From an uncultured Gammaproteobacteria bacterium (GTDB taxonomy: Bacteria; Patescibacteriota; Microgenomatia; Levybacterales; UBA12049): a DNA stretch of 64,000 nt. Shown here one piece after another: positions 19,732 through 63,452 of the stretch. Where the stretch lies: NCBI GenBank assembly GCA_964424775.1, contig CAYRJZ010000001.1, forward strand, positions 18,873 through 82,872, read 5' to 3'. How positions within the stretch are numbered: the stretch's first letter is position 1; every line of letters begins with the position of its first letter. Position numbers and translations under genes: made by a program. The notes under the pieces are model-generated. The model saw nothing but the letters and a program-made list of their open reading frames with translations. It did not search any database and was not told the DNA's origin.

Positions 19732-19986
19732 TTAGAAAATATCTCCTCGGCGATGAAGTGTTAGGGGAGGTAAATCATCAAATGACTCTGGTTGAAAAAG
19801 GAGATCATCCTCAGTGAACGGATAAGTTGAACTTGGTGCGATAACAGCGCGCTCCTCAGGAGTTGGTGGTAATGGTGAGGGAGAATAGAAAGATTCACCA
19901 GGTGTTTCTCGTCTAGTTATTCGAAGTCGTATACCGTGTTTTCCCGTAAGGACTTCGTGGTGTAATTTACCAATTCGTTCAGCCAT
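19732..19986 (-). CDS. hypothetical small protein (84 aa)
   Basis: ORF-track entry only, co-directional with pgk. No family recognised. Confidence 0.25.
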   Translation of the reverse strand: MAERIGKLHHEVLTGKHGIRLRITRRETPGESFYSPSPLPPTPEERAVIAPSSTYPFTEDDLLFQPESFDDLPPLTLHRRGDIF

Positions 19987-20052
19987 AAAAATAGAATACG
20001 TGAGAGTGTGAGAAAGAGCGTGACTAAAAGGTAACAGAATGCTGACAAAATT

Positions 20053-37794: not shown

Positions 37795-39339
37795 CTAGAG
37801 TGACTCCGTTTGGGAGCGATATTGCAACGCTTCTGCAATGTGGGCTGGAGTAATTTCTTCCTCGTTTTCAAGATCTGCAATCGTACGGGCAACTTTTATT
37901 GTTCTGTAAAAAGCTCTTCCTGAAAGATTAAGGGATGAGACAGCACTTTTGAGAAGAGAGAGGCATTCATCTGTGAGATGACAAAATTCTTTCACATTTT
38001 TCGTGGTGAGTTCAGCGTTGGAAAGAATTCCATGTTCTCGGTAGCGATTTATTTGTTTTTCCCGGGCAGTTCTTACTCTCTCACGAATTAACTCTGATGA
38101 TTCACTTTTTTCAGAATTTTTCTCTGTTAATTTTTCTACCTTTACTGCAGGAACAGTCAGATGAAGATCAATTCTATCAAGGAGGGGACCTGAAATCTTT
38201 TTCTGGTAACGAAGAATTGTACCTGATGGACAGGAGCACTCTTTAGTAGGATCACCAAAATATCCACAGGGACATGGATTTTGTGCAGCAACCACCATGC
38301 ACTTTGCGGGAAAACTCACTTTATTCTGTGCTCGTGCGATATGAACTACTCCATCTTCAATTGGTTGTCGAAGTGTTTCAAGAACGTGACGCGGGAATTC
38401 AGGTAATTCGTCTAAAAAGAGTACACCACGATGAGCAAGTGTTATTTCGCCGGGGCGGGGATTGCTACTGCCTCCAATAAGCCCAACAAGAGAGGTCGTA
38501 TGATGAGGCGATCTGAAAGGACGACGATTTACAATTTGTTCTCCTTTTAATAATCCTGAAATGCTATAAATTTTTGTTACCTCAATGGCCTCATCAAAGG
38601 TGAGAGGAGGGAGAATAGAAGGAAGGGTACGCGCAAGAAGTGTTTTTCCAGCACCTGGGGGTCCTTTCAAAAGCAAGTTATGACCACCGGCAGCAGCAAT
38701 CTCAAGAGCTCGCTTTGCCTGTTCCTGACCTTTTATATCACTCATATCAAAATCGTATTTTTCATCCAAACTTTCGGAGAAGGGGGTAAAGGGAAATATT
38801 TCTAGAAGTTTATCTCCAGACAAATGTTTGAATAAAGAAAGGAGTGAGTCTACTGAGTAAACATCTATTCCTTCAATAATTGCTGCTTCAGGTGCATTTG
38901 ATGAGGGGAGATAGAAAGTTGTAAAGTGAGACTTCTTTGCCATAATTGCTTGAGGAAGTACACCGGGTATGCTTCTAATTGTCCCATCTAAAGATAACTC
39001 ACCAGTTATGATGGCTGATGAGAGATCTGCTTTTAATTGCCCTGAGGCAATGAGAACTCCAATAGCAATTGGAAGATCATAGTATGGTCCTTCTTTAGGA
39101 AGGTCAGCAGGAGCTAAATTGACAGTGATTCTTTTTGACGGGAAGTCAGCTCCACTATTTCTAATAGCTGAGCGGACTCGCTCTTTCGCTTCATCCACTG
39201 ATTTATCAGGGAGGCCTACAATGGTAAAAGAGGGGAGACCTTGAGATGCGATATCCACTTCAACCTCAATTGGGACAGCATCAAGACCAATAACTGCTGA
39301 AGAATAAATCTTTGCCAGCATACTATTATTACTCAACAA
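37795..39339 (-). CDS. comM: Mg-chelatase-like AAA+ ATPase, ComM/YifB family
   Basis: YifB N-terminus (MLAKIYSSAVIGLDAVPIEVEVDIASQGLPSFTIVGLPDKSVDEAKERVRSAI) and Walker A (LLLKGPPGAGKT). Confidence 0.8.
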   Translation of the reverse strand: MLSNNSMLAKIYSSAVIGLDAVPIEVEVDIASQGLPSFTIVGLPDKSVDEAKERVRSAIRNSGADFPSKRITVNLAPADLPKEGPYYDLPIAIGVLIASGQLKADLSSAIITGELSLDGTIRSIPGVLPQAIMAKKSHFTTFYLPSSNAPEAAIIEGIDVYSVDSLLSLFKHLSGDKLLEIFPFTPFSESLDEKYDFDMSDIKGQEQAKRALEIAAAGGHNLLLKGPPGAGKTLLARTLPSILPPLTFDEAIEVTKIYSISGLLKGEQIVNRRPFRSPHHTTSLVGLIGGSSNPRPGEITLAHRGVLFLDELPEFPRHVLETLRQPIEDGVVHIARAQNKVSFPAKCMVVAAQNPCPCGYFGDPTKECSCPSGTILRYQKKISGPLLDRIDLHLTVPAVKVEKLTEKNSEKSESSELIRERVRTAREKQINRYREHGILSNAELTTKNVKEFCHLTDECLSLLKSAVSSLNLSGRAFYRTIKVARTIADLENEEEITPAHIAEALQYRSQTESL

Positions 39340-39462
39340 TAGAACTTTTCTTTCTATTCTTCAAGAGTATAGTGATTTAGTAACTAATAAATAGTTAATT
39401 CTATAGGAATTTGAATCGTATAAATATTTATGATATAGACACCCCAACAATAGCCTATAATA

Positions 39463-39496
39463 TTTGACTTTCCCCTTTGTCTTTAGTATAATATTA
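39463..39496 (+). promoter_or_regulatory. near-consensus sigma70 promoter (TTGACT-17-TATAAT)
   Basis: tttgactttcccctttgtctttagtataat: the -35 TTGACT, a 17-nt spacer, then the -10 TATAAT. It reads into the GC-rich segment downstream. Confidence 0.5.
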
Positions 39497-39502
39497 CTTA
39501 TT

Positions 39503-39915
39503 CTAGCCTCAGAAATTGGTGTTAGAAGTACATTAATAAGTGTTGTATGTTATCTAGTAATCCGTACTAGCTTTTAGCTCCGGTAAACGGAATTAAAAGC
39601 TGGTGCGGATATCATGGTTTCCGAGTGGGAGCCTACGTACCGGAGGTAACGAGGAAATGTCTTGCGATCCTGAAAAAAACCGACAAGTTGATCCCGAGAG
39701 GGAGCAAGTTTTCATTAACGAGGATTGGGACGATCCCGATCCTGACGATCCCGGCCCAACCGGGTACAAACGAGGCTCAGGTCGGATCAAAGATGATCTA
39801 GGCGCCTCGGCAGACGAACTTTGTCTTCATGTTGATGACAACCCCAATTGGGGTGTCTTCGACAAGTGGCCAATTCCTCAAGAGTAACCATGTGAAGCTG
39901 GTCCGCCAACTCGGC
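39503..39915 (+). ncRNA. candidate structured ncRNA of unknown family (RNase P RNA, 6S RNA or other housekeeping RNA not excluded)
   Basis: Sits in a 740-bp intergenic gap in an otherwise compact genome. The local GC (about 50%) is well above the flanking DNA. There is a perfect hairpin AGCUUUUAGCUCCGG-UAAA-CGGAAUUAAAAGCU near the 5' end and an 8-bp GC hairpin (GGUCCGCC-AACU-GGCGGACC) at the 3' end. The overlapping ORFs use atypical GC-rich codons. Confidence 0.35.
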
Positions 39916-40083
39916 GGACCATGCAGTTTACTAGATACGACATGAAAATAGATTTATTTTCTTACTTCATCATATGCGATGAATATTTGGAAAAGGGTCA
40001 AAAATAAATGAAGTCCATAGTTCATGGAGCATACAACACATACAAAACAATTTTTTTACCAATCAATCCTCAGTTAACTATTT

Positions 40084-41025
40084 TTACTGTTTCTTTGATT
40101 TACGCTGAACAAAAGTTAAATCTCTTCCTTCATCTCCGCTTTCTTTGCCTCGCCTGTTCGAAAAGAACTCAGGATGAGTAGCGGTATCTCGTCTATACAT
40201 CTCAATGTTCGAATCTGGAACACCACCTTCTATGATGATCTGATCTGCAATATGTCCAGCAATATCAACGTAATGAAGTCTAGAACCATCAGGTTGAGTC
40301 ACGTACTTTCTTCTTGAACTTCTCCAGTTGTCATAATTTGGCCACTTACTATAAAGGTCGTCTTCTTTATTTTGGTAACTGTCCATTTCAATACCCGGAA
40401 CCATTCCTATGTGAATATTTTGAGGGTCATAACCTTGTAGCTTGAGATCATAAATTGCAACGAGTGGGAGATTGGCATCTGCTTGTTTCGCACCTGCATG
40501 AATTAGTCCTACTACTTTTTTTATATCTCCATTTTCATCAATTTTCCAAGCTGTAACTATACAGACCGGGCAATCTGCTTGTTTTACCATAATTGCTATG
40601 TCTTCTTCTTCAGTAAAGATTGCATCAGCCTGAACTGCCAATTCCTGTTCACCTCTCTTGGGATTTTCTTTCAGTGTGTCTTGAGTAATCCAGGCAACGC
40701 GTGCAGCATCAGGTCCAGGACTAATTCTTACCCTGTTTTCTAATGGTGCTAAGTCAAGGTCATAAAATACAGCTTCGGTATTTGCTCTTGCCTGAATTTT
40801 TGCCTCTTCTGTTTTAGCTACACTTAAATCAGACATGTTTCCTCTTCCAAAGGTACTTCCATGAACGACATCAGGATATTTTTCAGATAGCTTCGGAAAA
40901 TGGAGGATACCCTTTACTCCTGGCAGCTCGTGAATCTCGGTATACACCTGAGGCTCATATTTTGCCATTGCTTCTTCTTGTGTTAATACTGCACCTTTCT
41001 CTATATCCATAATTAAATAATACAT
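40084..41025 (-). CDS. putative YfiH/PgeF (DUF152, laccase-domain) family protein
   Basis: Motifs ADCPVCIVTA and GLIHAGAKQ resemble the conserved ADC(L/V)P and HAGWRG blocks of YfiH. Tentative. Confidence 0.4.
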   Translation of the reverse strand: MYYLIMDIEKGAVLTQEEAMAKYEPQVYTEIHELPGVKGILHFPKLSEKYPDVVHGSTFGRGNMSDLSVAKTEEAKIQARANTEAVFYDLDLAPLENRVRISPGPDAARVAWITQDTLKENPKRGEQELAVQADAIFTEEEDIAIMVKQADCPVCIVTAWKIDENGDIKKVVGLIHAGAKQADANLPLVAIYDLKLQGYDPQNIHIGMVPGIEMDSYQNKEDDLYSKWPNYDNWRSSRRKYVTQPDGSRLHYVDIAGHIADQIIIEGGVPDSNIEMYRRDTATHPEFFSNRRGKESGDEGRDLTFVQRKSKKQ

Positions 41026-41111
41026 GTAGTTAATTTCTAAAGAAAGTGACTTCTTGCAGATATAAATTATTGTGGGTTGTGAAATTATTCATATAAATAG
41101 GTGAGGAGAGT

Positions 41112-42686
41112 TTGTGGTACCATACAGCGATGGCAAGAGAAGAAAAAAAGAAAATAGTAAATGCTACTTTAATTGTTAATCCAGTGAGTGGAGTAGGGGA
41201 CCCACGAGAAAGACGGAAAAAAATAATGAGTCTTGCACGAAGTTACGGATGGGAAGGGGAGTATATCGAAACGACCAAAACAAAGAGTGCGGGTGAGATA
41301 GCAAAAAGGGAAGTGGGGAGGGGAGTGAAACATATTATTGTTTGCGGTGGAGATGGAACAGTGATGGAAGTACTGGAGGCCATTGTTGGGAAAAAAGTAG
41401 CACTCGGTATCGTTCCACTGGGTACAGGAAATCTTCTCGCACGCAATCTATCTCTTCCTTTAGACATAGAGGAATCGTTAAAGGTAGCACTTTTTGGAAA
41501 TCATCAAAAAATAGATGTAGGAGTAGCGAATGGAACATATTTTGGTGTTATTGCCGGAATTGGTCTGGATGCAGAAGTAGTGCAGGCTGCAAAAAGAGAG
41601 ATGAAGGATAAATGGGGAATTTTAGCTTATGTTTTCACGACAATTAAAAGTCTTTCAAATCGTACTGCTCTTTTTGAAATAACACTTGATAAGAAGAAGA
41701 AAATTCGTACTCGAGCAAAGTCAGTTATGGCAGCAAATATGGGAAAACTTGTGGGAGGAGTGGATTTAGTTCCTTCAACTCACCCACGAAGTGGAACACT
41801 TCAGCTAGGTATTGTGAAAGCGCGGGGTATGAGAGAGTGGTTGAGTGTCTTTTTACACGCACTGCGGGGAAAAATTGAAAAGAGTCCTCATTATGATGTA
41901 TACACAGCTAGTCATATTGAGATCAAAGTCCTCAACGGGAAAAAGTTTTATGAGTGTGATGGTAACCACTTTCTTCCCACAGACCACTTAGTTATTAAAA
42001 TATTTCATAATGATGTCACAGTAATCGTCTCTCCTGATGTTTTGGCAAAGAAAAAAGGAGACAAGGTTCTGTTATTTGATTTTGATGGGACAGTTGCTGA
42101 TTCCCTTGAAATGGTTGTGAGAGTCTATAACACACTGGCAGATAAATATAATTATCCTCATCTCACTGCCCAAAAAAGAGAGGATTTACGTGGGATGAGT
42201 GCAAGGGAAGTTATTAAGAATTTGCCTATCCCATCCTACAAAGTTCCTCTTTATCTCAATGAAGGGAGAAAATTGTTTAAGGAACAGATTGAGGATCTTA
42301 AGCCATTTCCACAACTTTCTGAAGCTTTAAATTTGCTCTCAACGCAGTATACACTTGGGATTGTTACTTCAAATGAACCTGAGTTAGTTAAAAAATTCTT
42401 GCTCAAACACCATATAGATTATTTTGCTTTTGTCTACTCAGATGGAAGTATCTTTGGGAAGGGAAAGGTGATGAAGAATGTCATTAGAAAATATAAGTTT
42501 AATGCAAAGAATGTTTTATATGTCGGAGATGAGGTTCGAGATATAGATGCTGCTCGGGATGCTGGTCTGAGGGTGGCAAGTGTAACTTGGGGATTTAATT
42601 CAAAAGAAATTTTGCGTCAGAACAGGCCGGATTTTGTCATCGATACTCCTCTTAAATTAGCCTCACTCGATCTTTTTAAGGAGTAA
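41112..42686 (+). CDS. fusion protein: diacylglycerol-kinase-like lipid kinase (DAGK_cat, YegS/BmrU-like) + HAD-superfamily phosphatase
   Basis: N-terminal DAGK_cat motifs (IIVCGGDGTVMEVLEAI, GIVPLGTGNLLARNL). The C-terminal HAD domain has DxDGT motif I (LLFDFDGTVADS) and motif IV (YVGDEVRDIDAARDAG). The start could be the TTG at 41112 or the ATG at 41130. Confidence 0.65.
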   Translation: MWYHTAMAREEKKKIVNATLIVNPVSGVGDPRERRKKIMSLARSYGWEGEYIETTKTKSAGEIAKREVGRGVKHIIVCGGDGTVMEVLEAIVGKKVALGIVPLGTGNLLARNLSLPLDIEESLKVALFGNHQKIDVGVANGTYFGVIAGIGLDAEVVQAAKREMKDKWGILAYVFTTIKSLSNRTALFEITLDKKKKIRTRAKSVMAANMGKLVGGVDLVPSTHPRSGTLQLGIVKARGMREWLSVFLHALRGKIEKSPHYDVYTASHIEIKVLNGKKFYECDGNHFLPTDHLVIKIFHNDVTVIVSPDVLAKKKGDKVLLFDFDGTVADSLEMVVRVYNTLADKYNYPHLTAQKREDLRGMSAREVIKNLPIPSYKVPLYLNEGRKLFKEQIEDLKPFPQLSEALNLLSTQYTLGIVTSNEPELVKKFLLKHHIDYFAFVYSDGSIFGKGKVMKNVIRKYKFNAKNVLYVGDEVRDIDAARDAGLRVASVTWGFNSKEILRQNRPDFVIDTPLKLASLDLFKE

Positions 42687-42749
42687 TTTTTACTTTTTTC
42701 TTACCAGAGAAAGTAATCTTTTATTGCAGAGTTACTGCACAATACCTCT

Positions 42750-45008
42750 ATGAGACTTGTGTATATTGCGAATAGGCTCCCAGTTCGCATTGAGAAAAAG
42801 GAGAATGAGCCTTTTCATCTTCGACCCAGTCCAGGAGGGCTGGCTTCTGGACTTAATTCTTACTTAACATCACTTCCTCTCGAACAAAAGAAAGAAGGCT
42901 CATTATGGGCTGGTTGGCCTGGGTCACCAGTGGAAGAAGCGGATCAAAAGTTACTCACAGATATGCTTCTTCATGAGCATTCTGCTCTCCCAATCTTTCT
43001 CTCAACAGAGCAGGTGAACAGTTATTACAATGGTTTTTGTAATAAAGTGATCTGGCCACTTTTTCATTACTTCCTCAACTTTGTAGAGCCAAGTGAGGAG
43101 TATTGGCAGATGTATAGAGAGGTAAATAAACAGTTTGCTCTCCAGATAGCACCTTTTTTAAAAGAAGATGATCTCGTTGGAGTTCATGATTATCAGTTGT
43201 TACTAGTTCCTCAGTATCTTCGTGAGATTTATCCCAATCTTGCAATTAGTTTGTTTCTCCATATTCCTTTTCCATCAGGTGAGATTTGTCGCTGGTTACC
43301 CACACCTTGGAGAAGGGAAATACTTGAGGGGATGCTCGGAGCAGATCTTATTGGGTTTCACACCCACGAATATAGGCAGCACTTTCTCATGACTGCACTC
43401 AGATCACTTGGAGTTGAGAATAGAACAGGAAAAATTCTCGTGACGAATAGGCTTGTCGATACTGGTGTTTTTCCAATGGGTATTGATGTTCAGAAATTTC
43501 ATACTGCTTCAATAAGTAAAGTTGTTGAGGAGAAGTCGGTACAACTTAAAAAATCCCTTGGAGACAAGAAATTAATCTTTTCTGTTGATAGGCTGGATTA
43601 TACAAAAGGAATTGCGAATAGATTACTGGGTTACGAACAGTTTTTAAAAAAGCATCCCGAGTGGCATGGAAAAGTAACACTTGTGGTAAGTTCTGAACCA
43701 TCACGTGTTGATATTGATCAGTATAAGGCTATGAAGCGATCGATTGATGAGTTGATAGGCCGTATCAACGGACTTTATGGTAATCTTGTCTGGCAGCCTA
43801 TTCTTTATCAGTTTACATCACTCTCTTTTGAGGATATTGTTGCACTTTATAAAGCCAGCGATATTGCACTTATCACGCCACTTCGAGATGGGATGAATCT
43901 TATTGCAAAAGAGTACATCGCCAGTCTATCAGACTATAAAGGGGTCCTCATCTTAAGCGAAATGGCAGGTGCTGCAAAGGAATTAAAGGAAGCACTCTCG
44001 GTTAATCCATTAGACACTGAAGAAGTGGCACAGGCAATTTATCAAGGCCTCACAATGCCTCTTTCTGAGCAAAAGAAGAGAAATAAAAGTATGAGAAAGA
44101 GACTAGAAAAGTATGACGTCAGACAGTGGGCGAATGATTTAAACGAATCGCTCATAAAGGTGAAAAAAGAACAGCAAGGTCAACAAAGTGCGCATTTTTC
44201 TGAGGAACAGCAGTTCAGACTTACTGAAAGTTATTTAGCTTCCTCTCGCAGGCTTATTTTGCTTGATTATGATGGGACCTTAGTTCCATATGCGAACAAG
44301 CCTCATCTTGCTCGACCCACAAAAAGAGTATTAAACCTCTTGGTAGAGTTAACAAAGGACTATCGTAATGAAGTTGTCCTCATGAGTGGGCGAGATAAAA
44401 AGACACTTGATAAGTGGTTGAATATTCCAAAATTAACGCTTGTTGCAGAACATGGTGTCTGGAAGAAAGAAAGAAATGAGTACTACTGGAAGATGATGAG
44501 AAAATTCTCATCTGAGTGGAAATCTTCATTATTTCCACTTCTCAATCAATGGGTAGATAGAGTGCCCGGATCGTTTATAGAAGAGAAAGAGTATTCACTT
44601 GCATGGCATTACCGTCTTGTTGATCAGGCGACTACTCAAAACAGTATAAAAGAAATACTTTTTGAATTGACTGAATTTGCCTCAACAACAAATGCAGAGG
44701 TAATTCACGGGAATAAGGTCATTGAGGTGAAGAATATTGGAGCGGATAAGGGAACAGCAACACAACAGTGGCTCATGAAGAAGGATTATGATTTTATACT
44801 TGCTATCGGCGATGATACAACAGATGAAGATATGTTTGAGGTGCTCCCAAGGAAGGCATTTACTATTAAAGTGGGCGAGGAGACATCACGTGCCCAATAT
44901 AGAATAGGAGATAGTACAGATGTACTAGAACTTCTTGAGACTTTTATTTACCACTCACAGAGGAATAGTGATGAGAGAATAATTACTCTCCCATCACTCT
45001 CATCTTGA
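42750..45008 (+). CDS. otsA: bifunctional trehalose-6-phosphate synthase/phosphatase (OtsA-OtsB fusion)
   Basis: GT20 N-terminal domain (MRLVYIANRLPVRI...PSPGGLASGL) and a C-terminal T6PP HAD domain (LILLDYDGTLVP, IGDDTTDEDMFEV). Confidence 0.8.
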   Translation: MRLVYIANRLPVRIEKKENEPFHLRPSPGGLASGLNSYLTSLPLEQKKEGSLWAGWPGSPVEEADQKLLTDMLLHEHSALPIFLSTEQVNSYYNGFCNKVIWPLFHYFLNFVEPSEEYWQMYREVNKQFALQIAPFLKEDDLVGVHDYQLLLVPQYLREIYPNLAISLFLHIPFPSGEICRWLPTPWRREILEGMLGADLIGFHTHEYRQHFLMTALRSLGVENRTGKILVTNRLVDTGVFPMGIDVQKFHTASISKVVEEKSVQLKKSLGDKKLIFSVDRLDYTKGIANRLLGYEQFLKKHPEWHGKVTLVVSSEPSRVDIDQYKAMKRSIDELIGRINGLYGNLVWQPILYQFTSLSFEDIVALYKASDIALITPLRDGMNLIAKEYIASLSDYKGVLILSEMAGAAKELKEALSVNPLDTEEVAQAIYQGLTMPLSEQKKRNKSMRKRLEKYDVRQWANDLNESLIKVKKEQQGQQSAHFSEEQQFRLTESYLASSRRLILLDYDGTLVPYANKPHLARPTKRVLNLLVELTKDYRNEVVLMSGRDKKTLDKWLNIPKLTLVAEHGVWKKERNEYYWKMMRKFSSEWKSSLFPLLNQWVDRVPGSFIEEKEYSLAWHYRLVDQATTQNSIKEILFELTEFASTTNAEVIHGNKVIEVKNIGADKGTATQQWLMKKDYDFILAIGDDTTDEDMFEVLPRKAFTIKVGEETSRAQYRIGDSTDVLELLETFIYHSQRNSDERIITLPSLSS

Positions 45009-57179: not shown

Positions 57180-57251
57180 TCCCCTGTAGCTCAGCGGTAG
57201 AGCAGGAAGCTGTTAACTTCAAGGTCCGTGGTTCGAATCCACGCGGGGGAG
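57180..57251 (+). tRNA. tRNA-Asn (anticodon GUU)
   Basis: Cloverleaf by hand: acceptor UCCCCUG/CGGGGGA, D-arm GCUC-AGCGGUA-GAGC, anticodon arm GGAAG-CUGUUAA-CUUCA (U33, GUU, A37), variable loop AGGUC, T-arm CGUGG-UUCGAAU-CCACG, discriminator G. CCA is not encoded. Confidence 0.85.
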
Positions 57252-57421
57252 CAGAGATAGATTTTTAGTCCATATAACTTCTAAATTGGTTGGTATATCA
57301 TCTTCTCTTCAGGTTCTAACATCGTCCATCAGGCGGAGAAAAAAGTATCAGCAATCCACTAATATAACTTGTTTTATCGATTATTTGACAATTACCTTGG
57401 AATGATCCATTCTAATTAGAA

Positions 57422-61377: not shown

Positions 61378-61913
61378 CGGATTCATGAAAAGAAGTGCAG
61401 ATTATAGTTACTGAGTTGTAGCTCCCTAAGCTTTTTATTAAAGTAAAGAGCGGTTTATCTCTTCTCTCAGTTGTTATTTTACTTTTAGGTATTCTCATTG
61501 GAGCTATCGTTGGCATATTCTTTTATAAAGAGCTGACCGGTGACAATAAAGTAATTGTGAGTAATAATTATCAAAGAGAAGTATCTCCTCAAGAAAAAGC
61601 AGCAACTGAATATGGTTATGGCTATTTCGGATATGTTAAGAATAATTATCCAATCCCGAAGAAATTGGTAACTATTATTATTCAGGTATAGGTACTTTAC
61701 AAGCTGCATGTAGTACTGATGAGTCAACTGTCCTCCAATTACAAGCACATCGAGAACTTAGGAAAGCATTTCTGAGAGTTGAAGCTTTATCATTAAGAAA
61801 TAATTTCTTTAGTATGTTAAAAAACATATTCAATGTTAATTCACCTTTAGTTCATTTTTCTTCATGTGATCTTCATCATTGTTGGGCTAAAATCTATCCT
61901 ATACATTTAACAA

Positions 61914-63080: not shown

Positions 63081-63452
63081 TACACCCTTTTCCAAACGCC
63101 TCTTTACAAGCATAATAACTGGTCTTATAATCCGCTCACATGAGTGCACGCGCACTCAGAACAAGAGAAGGAGTGAAAGATGTTGCCCAAGATCAAAAGG
63201 CCATTGGTGATCTTCACTTGTCTATCAGTAATTGCAGCAATAATTGACTATGAAGTCAGATATAGGCTTGCAAAGCGACAAAAAAGGTAACACCCCTTAA
63301 CAAAGCACCGTAAAGTACGTACCCTAAGAATTTTCGTCTCATCGATTTGAGGTGGGAGCAAGAAGGCGCTGAGGATTTACGAGTTTACTCCAAGGTGCTT
63401 TCTTGCTATTTTATTTGATATACTCCTCGGTAGAGACAAGAGGTAGATCGTA

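Follow-up and report, generated by a model that had tools for sequence, protein, structure and literature searches.

A GC-rich intergenic element in a Patescibacteria genome: a candidate structured mRNA for an orphan acidic microprotein

Introduction

The stretch of DNA analysed here, 64,000 nucleotides of contig CAYRJZ010000001.1 (positions 18,873 to 82,872; called the window below), comes from an uncultured member of the Patescibacteria, also known as the candidate phyla radiation (CPR), which lies near Levybacteria and Microgenomates. Its largest internal stretch uncovered by any open reading frame (ORF) of at least 100 amino acids lies at 39340-40083, and the element in question is a plus-strand unit within this gap. 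We lean towards the reading that the region holds a structured mRNA for an orphan acidic microprotein, made as one monocistronic plus-strand unit in a lineage-specific insertion. The promoter of the unit matches the sigma70 consensus and is conserved, the plus strand folds well in excess of shuffled sequences, the centre has diverged in the manner of a protein gene, and 6 of the 11 base pairs of one 3' hairpin have changed on both sides. Among the collections searched, the element was found in only two closely related Patescibacteria genomes.

The original prediction, made from the sequence alone, had singled out the same 740-bp gap as unusual in a gene-dense window, as indeed it is, and had proposed that it contains an unannotated structured non-coding RNA (ncRNA), perhaps a divergent housekeeping RNA. 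Its remark that a GC content of about 50% far exceeds that of the surroundings agrees with the values obtained here: 0.53 over 39625-39924, compared with 0.25-0.30 in the flanking spacer and 0.394 in the whole window. The two overlapping ORFs that it listed, at 39603-39887 on the plus strand and 39593-39790 on the minus strand, both exist. The region is probably not as devoid of annotation as had been supposed, however. A 94-amino-acid protein identical to the product of ORF 39603-39887 is present in a protein collection with NCBI as its source, which suggests that this ORF had already been called in the source record; the region is therefore probably not an annotation gap there.

Protein-like divergence of a small ORF

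The sole relative found for the element is a 55-amino-acid product encoded on a syntenic Logan contig (L001), which is about 90% identical to the window over 14 kb. The coding features compared are as follows:

39657-39887, plus strand: small ORF of 76 codons plus stop, with an ATG start; the conserved core is codons 1-55, at 39657-39821
39642-39646, plus strand: Shine-Dalgarno-like GGAGG, read from the sequence, 10 nt before the ATG (7 nt in L001)

When the frame is read from the ATG at 39657, 34 codons are identical in the two genomes, 11 differ synonymously and 9 differ non-synonymously. The differences are distributed over the first, second and third codon positions as 4, 8 and 15, so that 15 of the 27 are at third positions. 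Redistributing the same substitutions over the sequence 20,000 times gave on average 5.6 synonymous and 17.3 non-synonymous changes, and none of the 20,000 permutations was as protein-like as the observed pattern (P<1e-4). Within a 24-codon core, NEDWDDPDPDDPGPTGYKRGSGRI, there are 8 synonymous changes and no non-synonymous ones, and the former include a change from CGA to AGG that preserves arginine. About 20% of the codons of the small ORF carry a synonymous change, which is similar to the 19-26% found in neighbouring genes, so the ORF is not simply frozen. The amino-acid identity of the product between the window and L001 is 83%.

The indels tell the same story as the substitutions. The sole indel inside the ORF is an in-frame insertion of 3 nt, TGG, after codon 20 in L001, whereas the indels beside the ORF are not multiples of three (a net 2 nt upstream; 2 nt and 4 nt downstream). 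The net 2-nt change upstream of the ATG means that the extension to GTG 39603 is broken in L001, and the 94-amino-acid form is thus not conserved. Both ATG 39657 and GGAGG are conserved in L001, and this ATG is the conserved start. The original prediction had named protein-like conservation of the acidic ORF as the result that would speak against an ncRNA, and this is the pattern that emerges (11 synonymous versus 9 non-synonymous differences and an in-frame indel), in the comparison with L001 only.

The product is strongly acidic and hydrophilic, with an isoelectric point of 4.1, a grand average of hydropathy (GRAVY) of -1.28, 14 Asp and 9 Pro among its 76 residues, and no transmembrane segment. 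An AlphaFold2 model has a mean confidence score (pLDDT) of 53 and no secondary structure, and is too poor for a fold search; the product is predicted to be a disordered acidic orphan of 55-76 amino acids. One of its predicted tryptic peptides is EQVFINEDWDDPDPDDPGPTGYK. A separate reading frame at 39614-39649 was considered as a leader peptide and rejected, as it has no ribosome site and continues out of frame in L001.

The original prediction was also right that the codons are GC-rich and atypical. The GC content at third codon positions (GC3) of the plus-strand ORF is 0.47, compared with 0.31 +/- 0.06 and a maximum of 0.43 in 76-codon chunks of the window's long ORFs. The ribosome site is unusual in its own way. 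Shine-Dalgarno motifs are scarce in the window, being found 3-12 nt before any of the first six candidate starts in about 12 of 38 long ORFs, and in just three or four of these 12 or so is the motif at the first candidate start or no more than 3 codons away from it. For this genome, the GGAGG ahead of the small ORF is thus unusual.

Could the coding strand be the minus strand instead? Both genomes have an open, Gly/Ser-rich frame on that strand (39593-39790 in the window), which scores close to the plus-strand frame (10 synonymous versus 10 non-synonymous differences) and runs in the same direction as its neighbours, the YfiH-like gene and ComM. Coding signals are nevertheless known to be mimicked by antisense frames with shared wobble positions. 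Moreover, the start codon of the minus-strand frame is not conserved, its ends are not the same in the two genomes, it has neither a Shine-Dalgarno motif at a usable distance nor a promoter-like site on its strand, and its low-complexity product is the mirror of Asp-Pro codons. We consider a minus-strand gene highly doubtful.

Excess folding of the untranslated regions

A folding scan of the whole window, with minimum free energies (MFE) regressed on GC content over 2554 windows of 200 nt on both strands, placed the four most over-folded windows of the 64 kb in 39451-40000, all on the plus strand. The plus strand of 39498-39935 folds with -173.8 kcal/mol and a z-score of -8.0 relative to dinucleotide shuffles, compared with -4.5 for the minus strand. 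This folding is unevenly distributed along the unit. The leader has z-scores of -5.9 in the window and -6.4 in L001, and the 3' part has -4.3 and -3.9 despite its sequence divergence, while the ORF core is weakly structured (-1.8 and -2.3). The excess folding is thus located in the untranslated regions and not in the coding core. The original prediction of a structured ncRNA can be divided accordingly: the region does contain a separate and exceptionally structured plus-strand unit, but its middle evolves like a protein gene.

The structural elements, all on the plus strand, are listed below in order of position:

39501-39527, plus strand: H0, the 5'-terminal hairpin of the leader (MFE folds of both sequences; RNAalifold consensus columns 2-29)
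39537-39549, plus strand: 5' arm of the long-range helix, UAAGUGUUGUAUG, pairing with 40030-40042
39551-39559, plus strand: 5' strand of the inner closing stem, UAUCUAGUA, pairing with 39929-39937
39560-39610, plus strand: P2, a hairpin of 51 nt and about 21 base pairs (inverted repeat I1, MFE folds, consensus)
39616-39633, plus strand: P3, the hairpin GGUUUCC-GAGU-GGGAGCC, 7 bp with two G-U pairs (folds, consensus)
39830-39864, plus strand: H4, a 14-bp hairpin with the tip CCCC-AAUU-GGGG, within the C-terminal extension of the window's ORF
39897-39924, plus strand: H5, a GC-rich 11-bp hairpin; its loop has 5 nt and a single U is bulged (pair comparison by script)
39929-39937, plus strand: 3' strand of the inner closing stem, UACUAGAUA, pairing with 39551-39559
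39938-40029, plus strand: possible AT-rich 3' domain with small hairpins, which would be in the RNA only if transcription passes 39937
40030-40042, plus strand: 3' arm of the long-range helix, CAUACAACACAUA (inverted repeat I8), followed by a run of seven U residues (U7) at 40051-40057

The non-coding parts are conserved either in sequence or in pairing, which bears out the structural half of the original prediction. The leader belongs to the first kind. Over 39521-39642 there are 3 changes in 122 nt relative to L001, in a locus with about 90% identity as a whole, and all three changes are neutral with respect to the fold: A39560G converts an A-U to a G-U pair at the base of P2, and G39583U and A39585G lie in its apical loop. 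The differences in H0 are in the loop or one-sided, and P3, which occurs just once in the window, is unchanged in L001. Three G-U pairs of P2 would be A-C mismatches on the minus strand, and G-U pairs are frequent in H0, P2, P3 and the long-range helix, on which grounds the fold is assigned to the plus strand. The first of the two hairpins in the original prediction, placed at 39570-39603, is real, but its true extent is that of P2. Pairing of an anti-Shine-Dalgarno sequence in the apical half of P2 (39574-39585) with the ribosome site (39638-39649; repeat I12, 11 of 12 positions complementary) was considered as a regulatory switch and rejected, since both L001 differences weaken this pairing.

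The 3' part is of the second kind. No other segment of the 14-kb alignment has diverged as far (35-50% identity), and yet hairpins of similar design are found in both genomes. The sequence around H4 has this same 35-50% identity, and at the corresponding site, which is non-coding in L001, there is a 21-bp hairpin with the tip CCCCG-GACA-CGGGG and different stem sequences. H5, whose inner form is GGUCCGCC-AACUC-GGCGGACC at 39900-39920, has the same architecture in L001, where 5 pairs are identical, 6 of the 11 are changed on both sides and none is broken. These pairs were compared by script; MAFFT gave no position-by-position alignment of H5. The second hairpin of the original prediction, at 39892-39912 with an AACU loop, is thus genuine, although both its position and its 4-nt loop needed correction (39900-39920 or 39897-39924, with AACUC). 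The possible 3' domain at 39938-40029 is about 60-65% identical to L001.

Two adjacent long-range helices, of 9 bp and 13 bp, are predicted to join the leader to the 3' part, for a combined 5'-3' pairing of 22 bp. The inner closing stem has a pair probability of 0.65-0.98 in the window and is about 75% paired in L001; seven of its pairs are kept in the RNAalifold consensus, and ACUAGAU forms a conserved island amid the most diverged part of the alignment. In the longer helix, 12 of the 13 positions can pair in the window and all 13 in L001, where A40040U supplies the last. For an RNA extended to 40066, its pair probability is about 1.0 in the window and L001 alike. The RNAalifold consensus keeps this helix (columns 42-52 with 542-552), and TGGAGCATACAACAC, in its 3' arm, is a conserved island within the diverged spacer. 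A perfect complement of at least 10 nt nevertheless arises by chance in 1.3% of dinucleotide shuffles, and the case for this helix is therefore suggestive rather than proven.

In all, the RNAalifold consensus contains 133 pairs, 10 of them with two-sided changes, and retains both long-range helices. The covarying pairs are confined to the 3' part; with two sequences, the nearly invariant leader is uninformative on covariation.

These structures might also be taken as evidence that the whole unit is a novel large ncRNA of about 390-510 nt, running from 39537 or 39551 to 39937 or 40042, in which the ORF is incidental to a GC-rich sequence with many GAUCCC repeats. This is the window's most fold-prone region (z = -8), closing helices in two parts are typical of large ncRNAs, and the 3' hairpins covary. 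In addition, L001 has an in-frame stop, the codon usage is atypical, and the orphan protein has a prediction of disorder. We nevertheless think a purely non-coding RNA quite unlikely. The substitutions over 39657-39821 are protein-like, the core barely folds better than shuffles, and no Rfam family matches. Several synonymous changes even weaken predicted local helices: GGG to GGA breaks a C-G pair of the CCCGG/CCGGG helix, and with GAU to GAC the GGAUUGGGA/UCCCGAUCC hairpin loses its closing pair.

Promoter and transcript limits

The promoter described in the original prediction, TTGACT-17-TATAAT at 39463-39496, is present with slightly narrower limits:

39464-39492, plus strand: sigma70-type promoter, with the -35 element TTGACT at 39464-39469, a 17-nt spacer and the -10 element TATAAT at 39487-39492 (11 of 12 consensus positions)

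L001 has the same two hexamers, with differences at 5 of the 17 spacer positions between them. Promoter-like sites are not enriched as a class (4 found versus 2.9 expected), and all of those in 39000-40400 are on the plus strand, with none on the minus strand. Transcription is predicted to start at about 39499-39500.

A scan for intrinsic terminators detected no terminator-like site on the plus strand within the transcript. The sequence next to H5 is AUGCAGUUUACU in the window and GGCUAAACU in L001, without a U-tract, and the U7 run at 40051-40057 starts 8 nt past the long-range helix, so that neither H5 nor this helix directly precedes a U-tract. The RNA would be about 440 nt long if it ended near 39940 and about 560 nt if it reached the U7 run. 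There is no co-directional gene downstream of the unit, and the RNA may share sequence with the convergent YfiH message at the 3' end of the latter.

Searches for families and further relatives

The original prediction had suggested RNase P RNA, 6S RNA or the signal recognition particle (SRP) RNA as possible identities, and had proposed a search of Rfam with cmscan that would also cover transfer-messenger RNA (tmRNA), ROOL and GOLLD. The search lends no support to any of these. At gathering scores, Rfam 15 matched only a tRNA in the whole window. With the threshold relaxed to E<=10, 39300-40120 gave only small nucleolar RNA and microRNA noise (E 0.8-5), with 16-21 bits for the best models compared with gathering scores of 50-90. 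None of RNase P, tmRNA, SRP, 6S, ROOL, GOLLD, OLE, raiA, HEARO, riboswitches or leaders was matched. ARAGORN likewise found no tmRNA in the window, only tRNA-Asn at 57180-57252. The region is accordingly not the organism's RNase P, tmRNA, SRP or 6S RNA, which removes a false lead: it is a lineage-specific curiosity rather than a missing housekeeping RNA. As a separate observation, that tRNA-Asn (GUU) is the sole RNA gene detected in the 64 kb by Rfam and ARAGORN.

Protein searches were similarly sparse in their returns. A word-indexed search of 5.8 billion proteins recovered the ORF itself and the one 55-amino-acid relative, and an exhaustive HMMER search of 1.84 billion cluster representatives with a profile of 77 positions found no true relative beyond the latter. 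Two long proteins that did score in this search (P0003 and P0004, of 1081 and 863 amino acids, with 16 and 10 matched stretches and E-values of 1e-22 and 1e-12) were rejected as tandem repeats in which weak matches had been summed. The ORF has no match in Pfam, NCBIfam, PHROGs or PDB sequences.

Nucleotide-level and context searches were directed at further copies of the element. A tblastn search of plasmids, a blastn search of phages and three viral scans returned nothing. A scan of genome contigs with ComM yielded 30 Patescibacteria loci, in none of which the nucleotide sequence resembles the element, and peptide patterns run against metagenomes brought up no relative that could be confirmed. 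A metagenome scan with the 18-mer of P3 produced 13 matches, all of which were set aside on account of their unrelated flanks. A covariance model of the leader, run against 35 sources (the window and 34 related loci), found only the two sequences from which it was built and no second copy. Cluster look-ups showed no third strain on record.

The locus and its neighbours

The gap is bounded by two genes on the opposite strand from the unit:

37795-39339, minus strand: ComM/YifB Mg-chelatase-like ATPase gene, one flank of the gap at 39340-40083
40084-41025, minus strand: Cu-oxidase_4/YfiH-like gene, the other flank of this gap

This arrangement is peculiar to the two genomes. In relatives with a ComM 80% and 77% identical, ComM abuts the gene for a diacylglycerol kinase (DAGK)/HAD protein, with a separation of only 60-70 nt. 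In a third (L002, with a ComM also 77% identical) a different gene, of 254 amino acids, lies about 70 nt upstream of ComM. None of these three next relatives has the gap or a YfiH gene. Among YfiH homologues, those 84% and 73% identical have no such gap downstream; the contig of one that is 64% identical stops 25 nt past the gene and is uninformative on this point. Since the gap and the YfiH gene are both missing from the next relatives, the unit and the YfiH-like gene together form a lineage-specific insertion of about 1.75 kb, 39340-41111, which we take to be a recent one in this CPR genome.

An insertion of this kind raises the question of whether the element is, or once was, mobile: 39537-39549 and 40030-40042 could be terminal inverted repeats acting at the DNA level, enclosing a GC-rich interior of foreign origin. 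The repeats are conserved, GC content and GC3 look foreign, and the element sits within the insertion that the next relatives lack. However, the repeats are not flanked by a target-site duplication or any other direct repeat, there is no transposase, and no other paired copy of the repeats (with up to 2 mismatches) occurs in the window, nor does any occur in the 34 related loci. Of the hallmarks of a miniature inverted-repeat transposable element or insertion sequence, only the inverted repeat is thus present. The promoter lies outside the repeats and is conserved all the same, the many G-U pairs suggest constraint at the RNA level, and nothing matched in the phage, plasmid or viral collections. 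A remnant or passenger of a mobile element is very unlikely on this evidence.

Several further observations concern the neighbourhood. The product of 41112-42686 is a 524-amino-acid fusion in which a HAD phosphatase domain is joined to the catalytic domain of a diacylglycerol kinase (with YegS_C); in one relative (L047) the gene at the position of the fusion codes for the 227-amino-acid HAD part only. Identity between the window and L001 is mosaic, being about 99-100% over window positions 41450-44150 and roughly 85-90% in flanking genes, and the near-identical tract covers the DAGK-HAD and trehalose-6-phosphate synthase/phosphatase genes. This pattern suggests that the two lineages recently recombined or exchanged DNA, or that an assembly is chimeric. 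Three more stretches, of 320-440 nt, in which no ORF reaches 100 amino acids lie at 19732-20052, 61378-61813 and 63081-63452. The first holds an 84-amino-acid minus-strand ORF (19732-19986) and the other two hold short, unconvincing ORFs only; none of the three is prominent in the folding scan.

A proposed mechanism and the points against it

How might such a message work? The sigma70-type promoter at 39464-39492 would drive a strongly expressed RNA consisting, in order, of a conserved, hairpin-rich leader of 157 nt (H0, P2, P3), the GGAGG, the ATG at 39657, an ORF of 55-76 codons, and the 3' hairpins H4 and H5. The two adjacent long-range helices would join the leader to the 3' part and so close a compact, multi-branched fold. 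Terminal hairpins and 5'-3' closure may shield the message from end-dependent RNases, giving a long-lived mRNA, and the leader, more constrained than the protein, may govern stability or the level of translation. Only partial pairing is predicted for the ribosome site, where GGAGG has unpaired probabilities of 0.34 in the window (computed over 39643-39647, one base off the motif) and 0.54 in L001, and this favours stabilisation or factor binding rather than simple switching by sequestration.

Perhaps the leader does more than serve its own message. In a dual-function RNA, the transcript would be translated while the leader (P2, P3 and the closing helices) also bound a protein or another RNA. 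Such a role would fit the far stronger conservation of the leader (3 changes in 122 nt) compared with the protein (83% amino-acid identity), the closed multi-branched fold common to both genomes, and a strong promoter of its own with no downstream co-directional gene. On the other hand, a search of the 64-kb window for targets in trans gave best antisense matches of 11-12 nt with E >=1.4, nothing above chance, and the leader model has no second copy in the window or the 34 related loci. A conserved 5' untranslated region (UTR) is, in addition, equally expected of a purely cis-acting regulator. We regard a dual function as not very likely.

A broader version of this idea would make the element an undescribed Patescibacteria RNA of about 500 nt, end-closed and multi-domain, with an RNA-level function for its leader and closure and with the acidic microprotein message at its centre. 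We think this unlikely. If true, it would represent a new class of dual-function RNA in an uncultivated lineage with reduced genomes, and the RNA-level role could be protein binding, or that of a processing or stability module.

A structured mRNA for the microprotein remains the reading towards which we lean, and a number of points weigh against it. L001 has a TAA at codon 56 where the window reads on to a stop at codon 77, so the stop codon is not conserved, and the last 21 codons in the window overlap H4, which evolves like RNA. Non-synonymous change per codon is about five times that of the neighbours (ComM, YfiH and a beta-lactamase-like gene), at 9 in 54 codons compared with 23 in 508, 12 in 308 and 11 in 286. 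The antisense frame that shares the wobble positions, open in both genomes, reaches the 10 versus 10 given above. The GC3 of 0.47 is beyond the range of the window's long ORFs, and the protein has no family, predicted fold or further relative among the 1.84 billion cluster representatives. With Shine-Dalgarno motifs uncommon in the window, the GGAGG is weak evidence for a ribosome site, and there is no U-tract directly 3' of H5 or of the long-range helix. Conservation of the leader could come in part from recombination, considering that the locus is mosaic. Finally, there are only two sequences, and the codon and covariation tests rest on few events.

If the element is indeed transcribed and translated, it would be among very few candidate small-protein or dual-function RNAs in Patescibacteria. 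A mild interest remains beyond this, in a leader better conserved than the microprotein that it precedes, in ends that can pair over 22 bp, and in a recent insertion within a CPR genome.

Comparison with known systems

SgrS/SgrT, RNAIII/hld and SR1/SR1P are dual-function RNAs that are both translated and active as RNA. Like them, the element would be transcribed on its own, from a dedicated promoter, as a stably folded RNA of a few hundred nucleotides that carries a short ORF, and its RNA part is better conserved than the peptide. Unlike them, it has no base-pairing target or seed that could be found here and no homology to them, and its ORF takes up a third to a half of the RNA.

In hok/sok, a toxin mRNA is kept inert through fold-back pairing of its 5' and 3' ends. 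Like hok-type mRNAs, the element has a small ORF enclosed by pairing between the 5' leader and the 3' end, in a compact, structured and presumably stable RNA. Might it belong to a type I toxin-antitoxin-like locus, with an mRNA held inert in the same way? The small ORF, the strong promoter and the narrow, insertion-associated distribution would be compatible with this, but the 5'-3' closure is the sole feature shared with hok/sok in our membership test. The peptide is strongly hydrophilic and acidic (GRAVY and isoelectric point as above) without a transmembrane segment, there is no antisense promoter, and the ribosome site is predicted to be largely accessible rather than sequestered. We find a toxin-antitoxin locus barely credible. 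In its architecture the element thus resembles both dual-function small RNAs and fold-back mRNAs, but the membership tests placed it in neither class.

With OLE, ROOL, GOLLD, raiA, HEARO and the housekeeping RNAs the element shares a length of 400-550 nt, a multi-branched closed fold and a GC content above that of the genome. It differs from these large RNAs in that no covariance model matches it, its central third is protein-like, and it is found in two genomes rather than phylum-wide.

A further parallel comes from the GC-rich intergenic region (GC-IGR) and DIMPL searches for structured RNAs (PMC11109978, PMC8723152). Of 4714 GC-rich intergenic regions in the first of these studies, 2948 turned out to be known ORFs, a base rate that favours the structured mRNA. 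Long intergenic regions that are GC-rich within AT-rich genomes are the classic signature used in searching for structured RNAs and, as the present case illustrates, are often unrecognised small protein genes. The element is like the candidates of those searches both in this signature and in having fewer than five representatives; motifs of which this is true are ranked low there (PMC11109978), and with two sequences only the element is a low-ranking candidate. The criteria for small ORFs in the same study include conserved start and stop codons (PMC11109978). Here the start codon is conserved and the pattern of substitution is compatible with coding, while the stop is not conserved (codon 56 in L001, codon 77 in the window). 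In the terms of that study, then, the element is either a small ORF or a low-ranking candidate, and its UTRs hold far more conserved structure than a plain small ORF requires.

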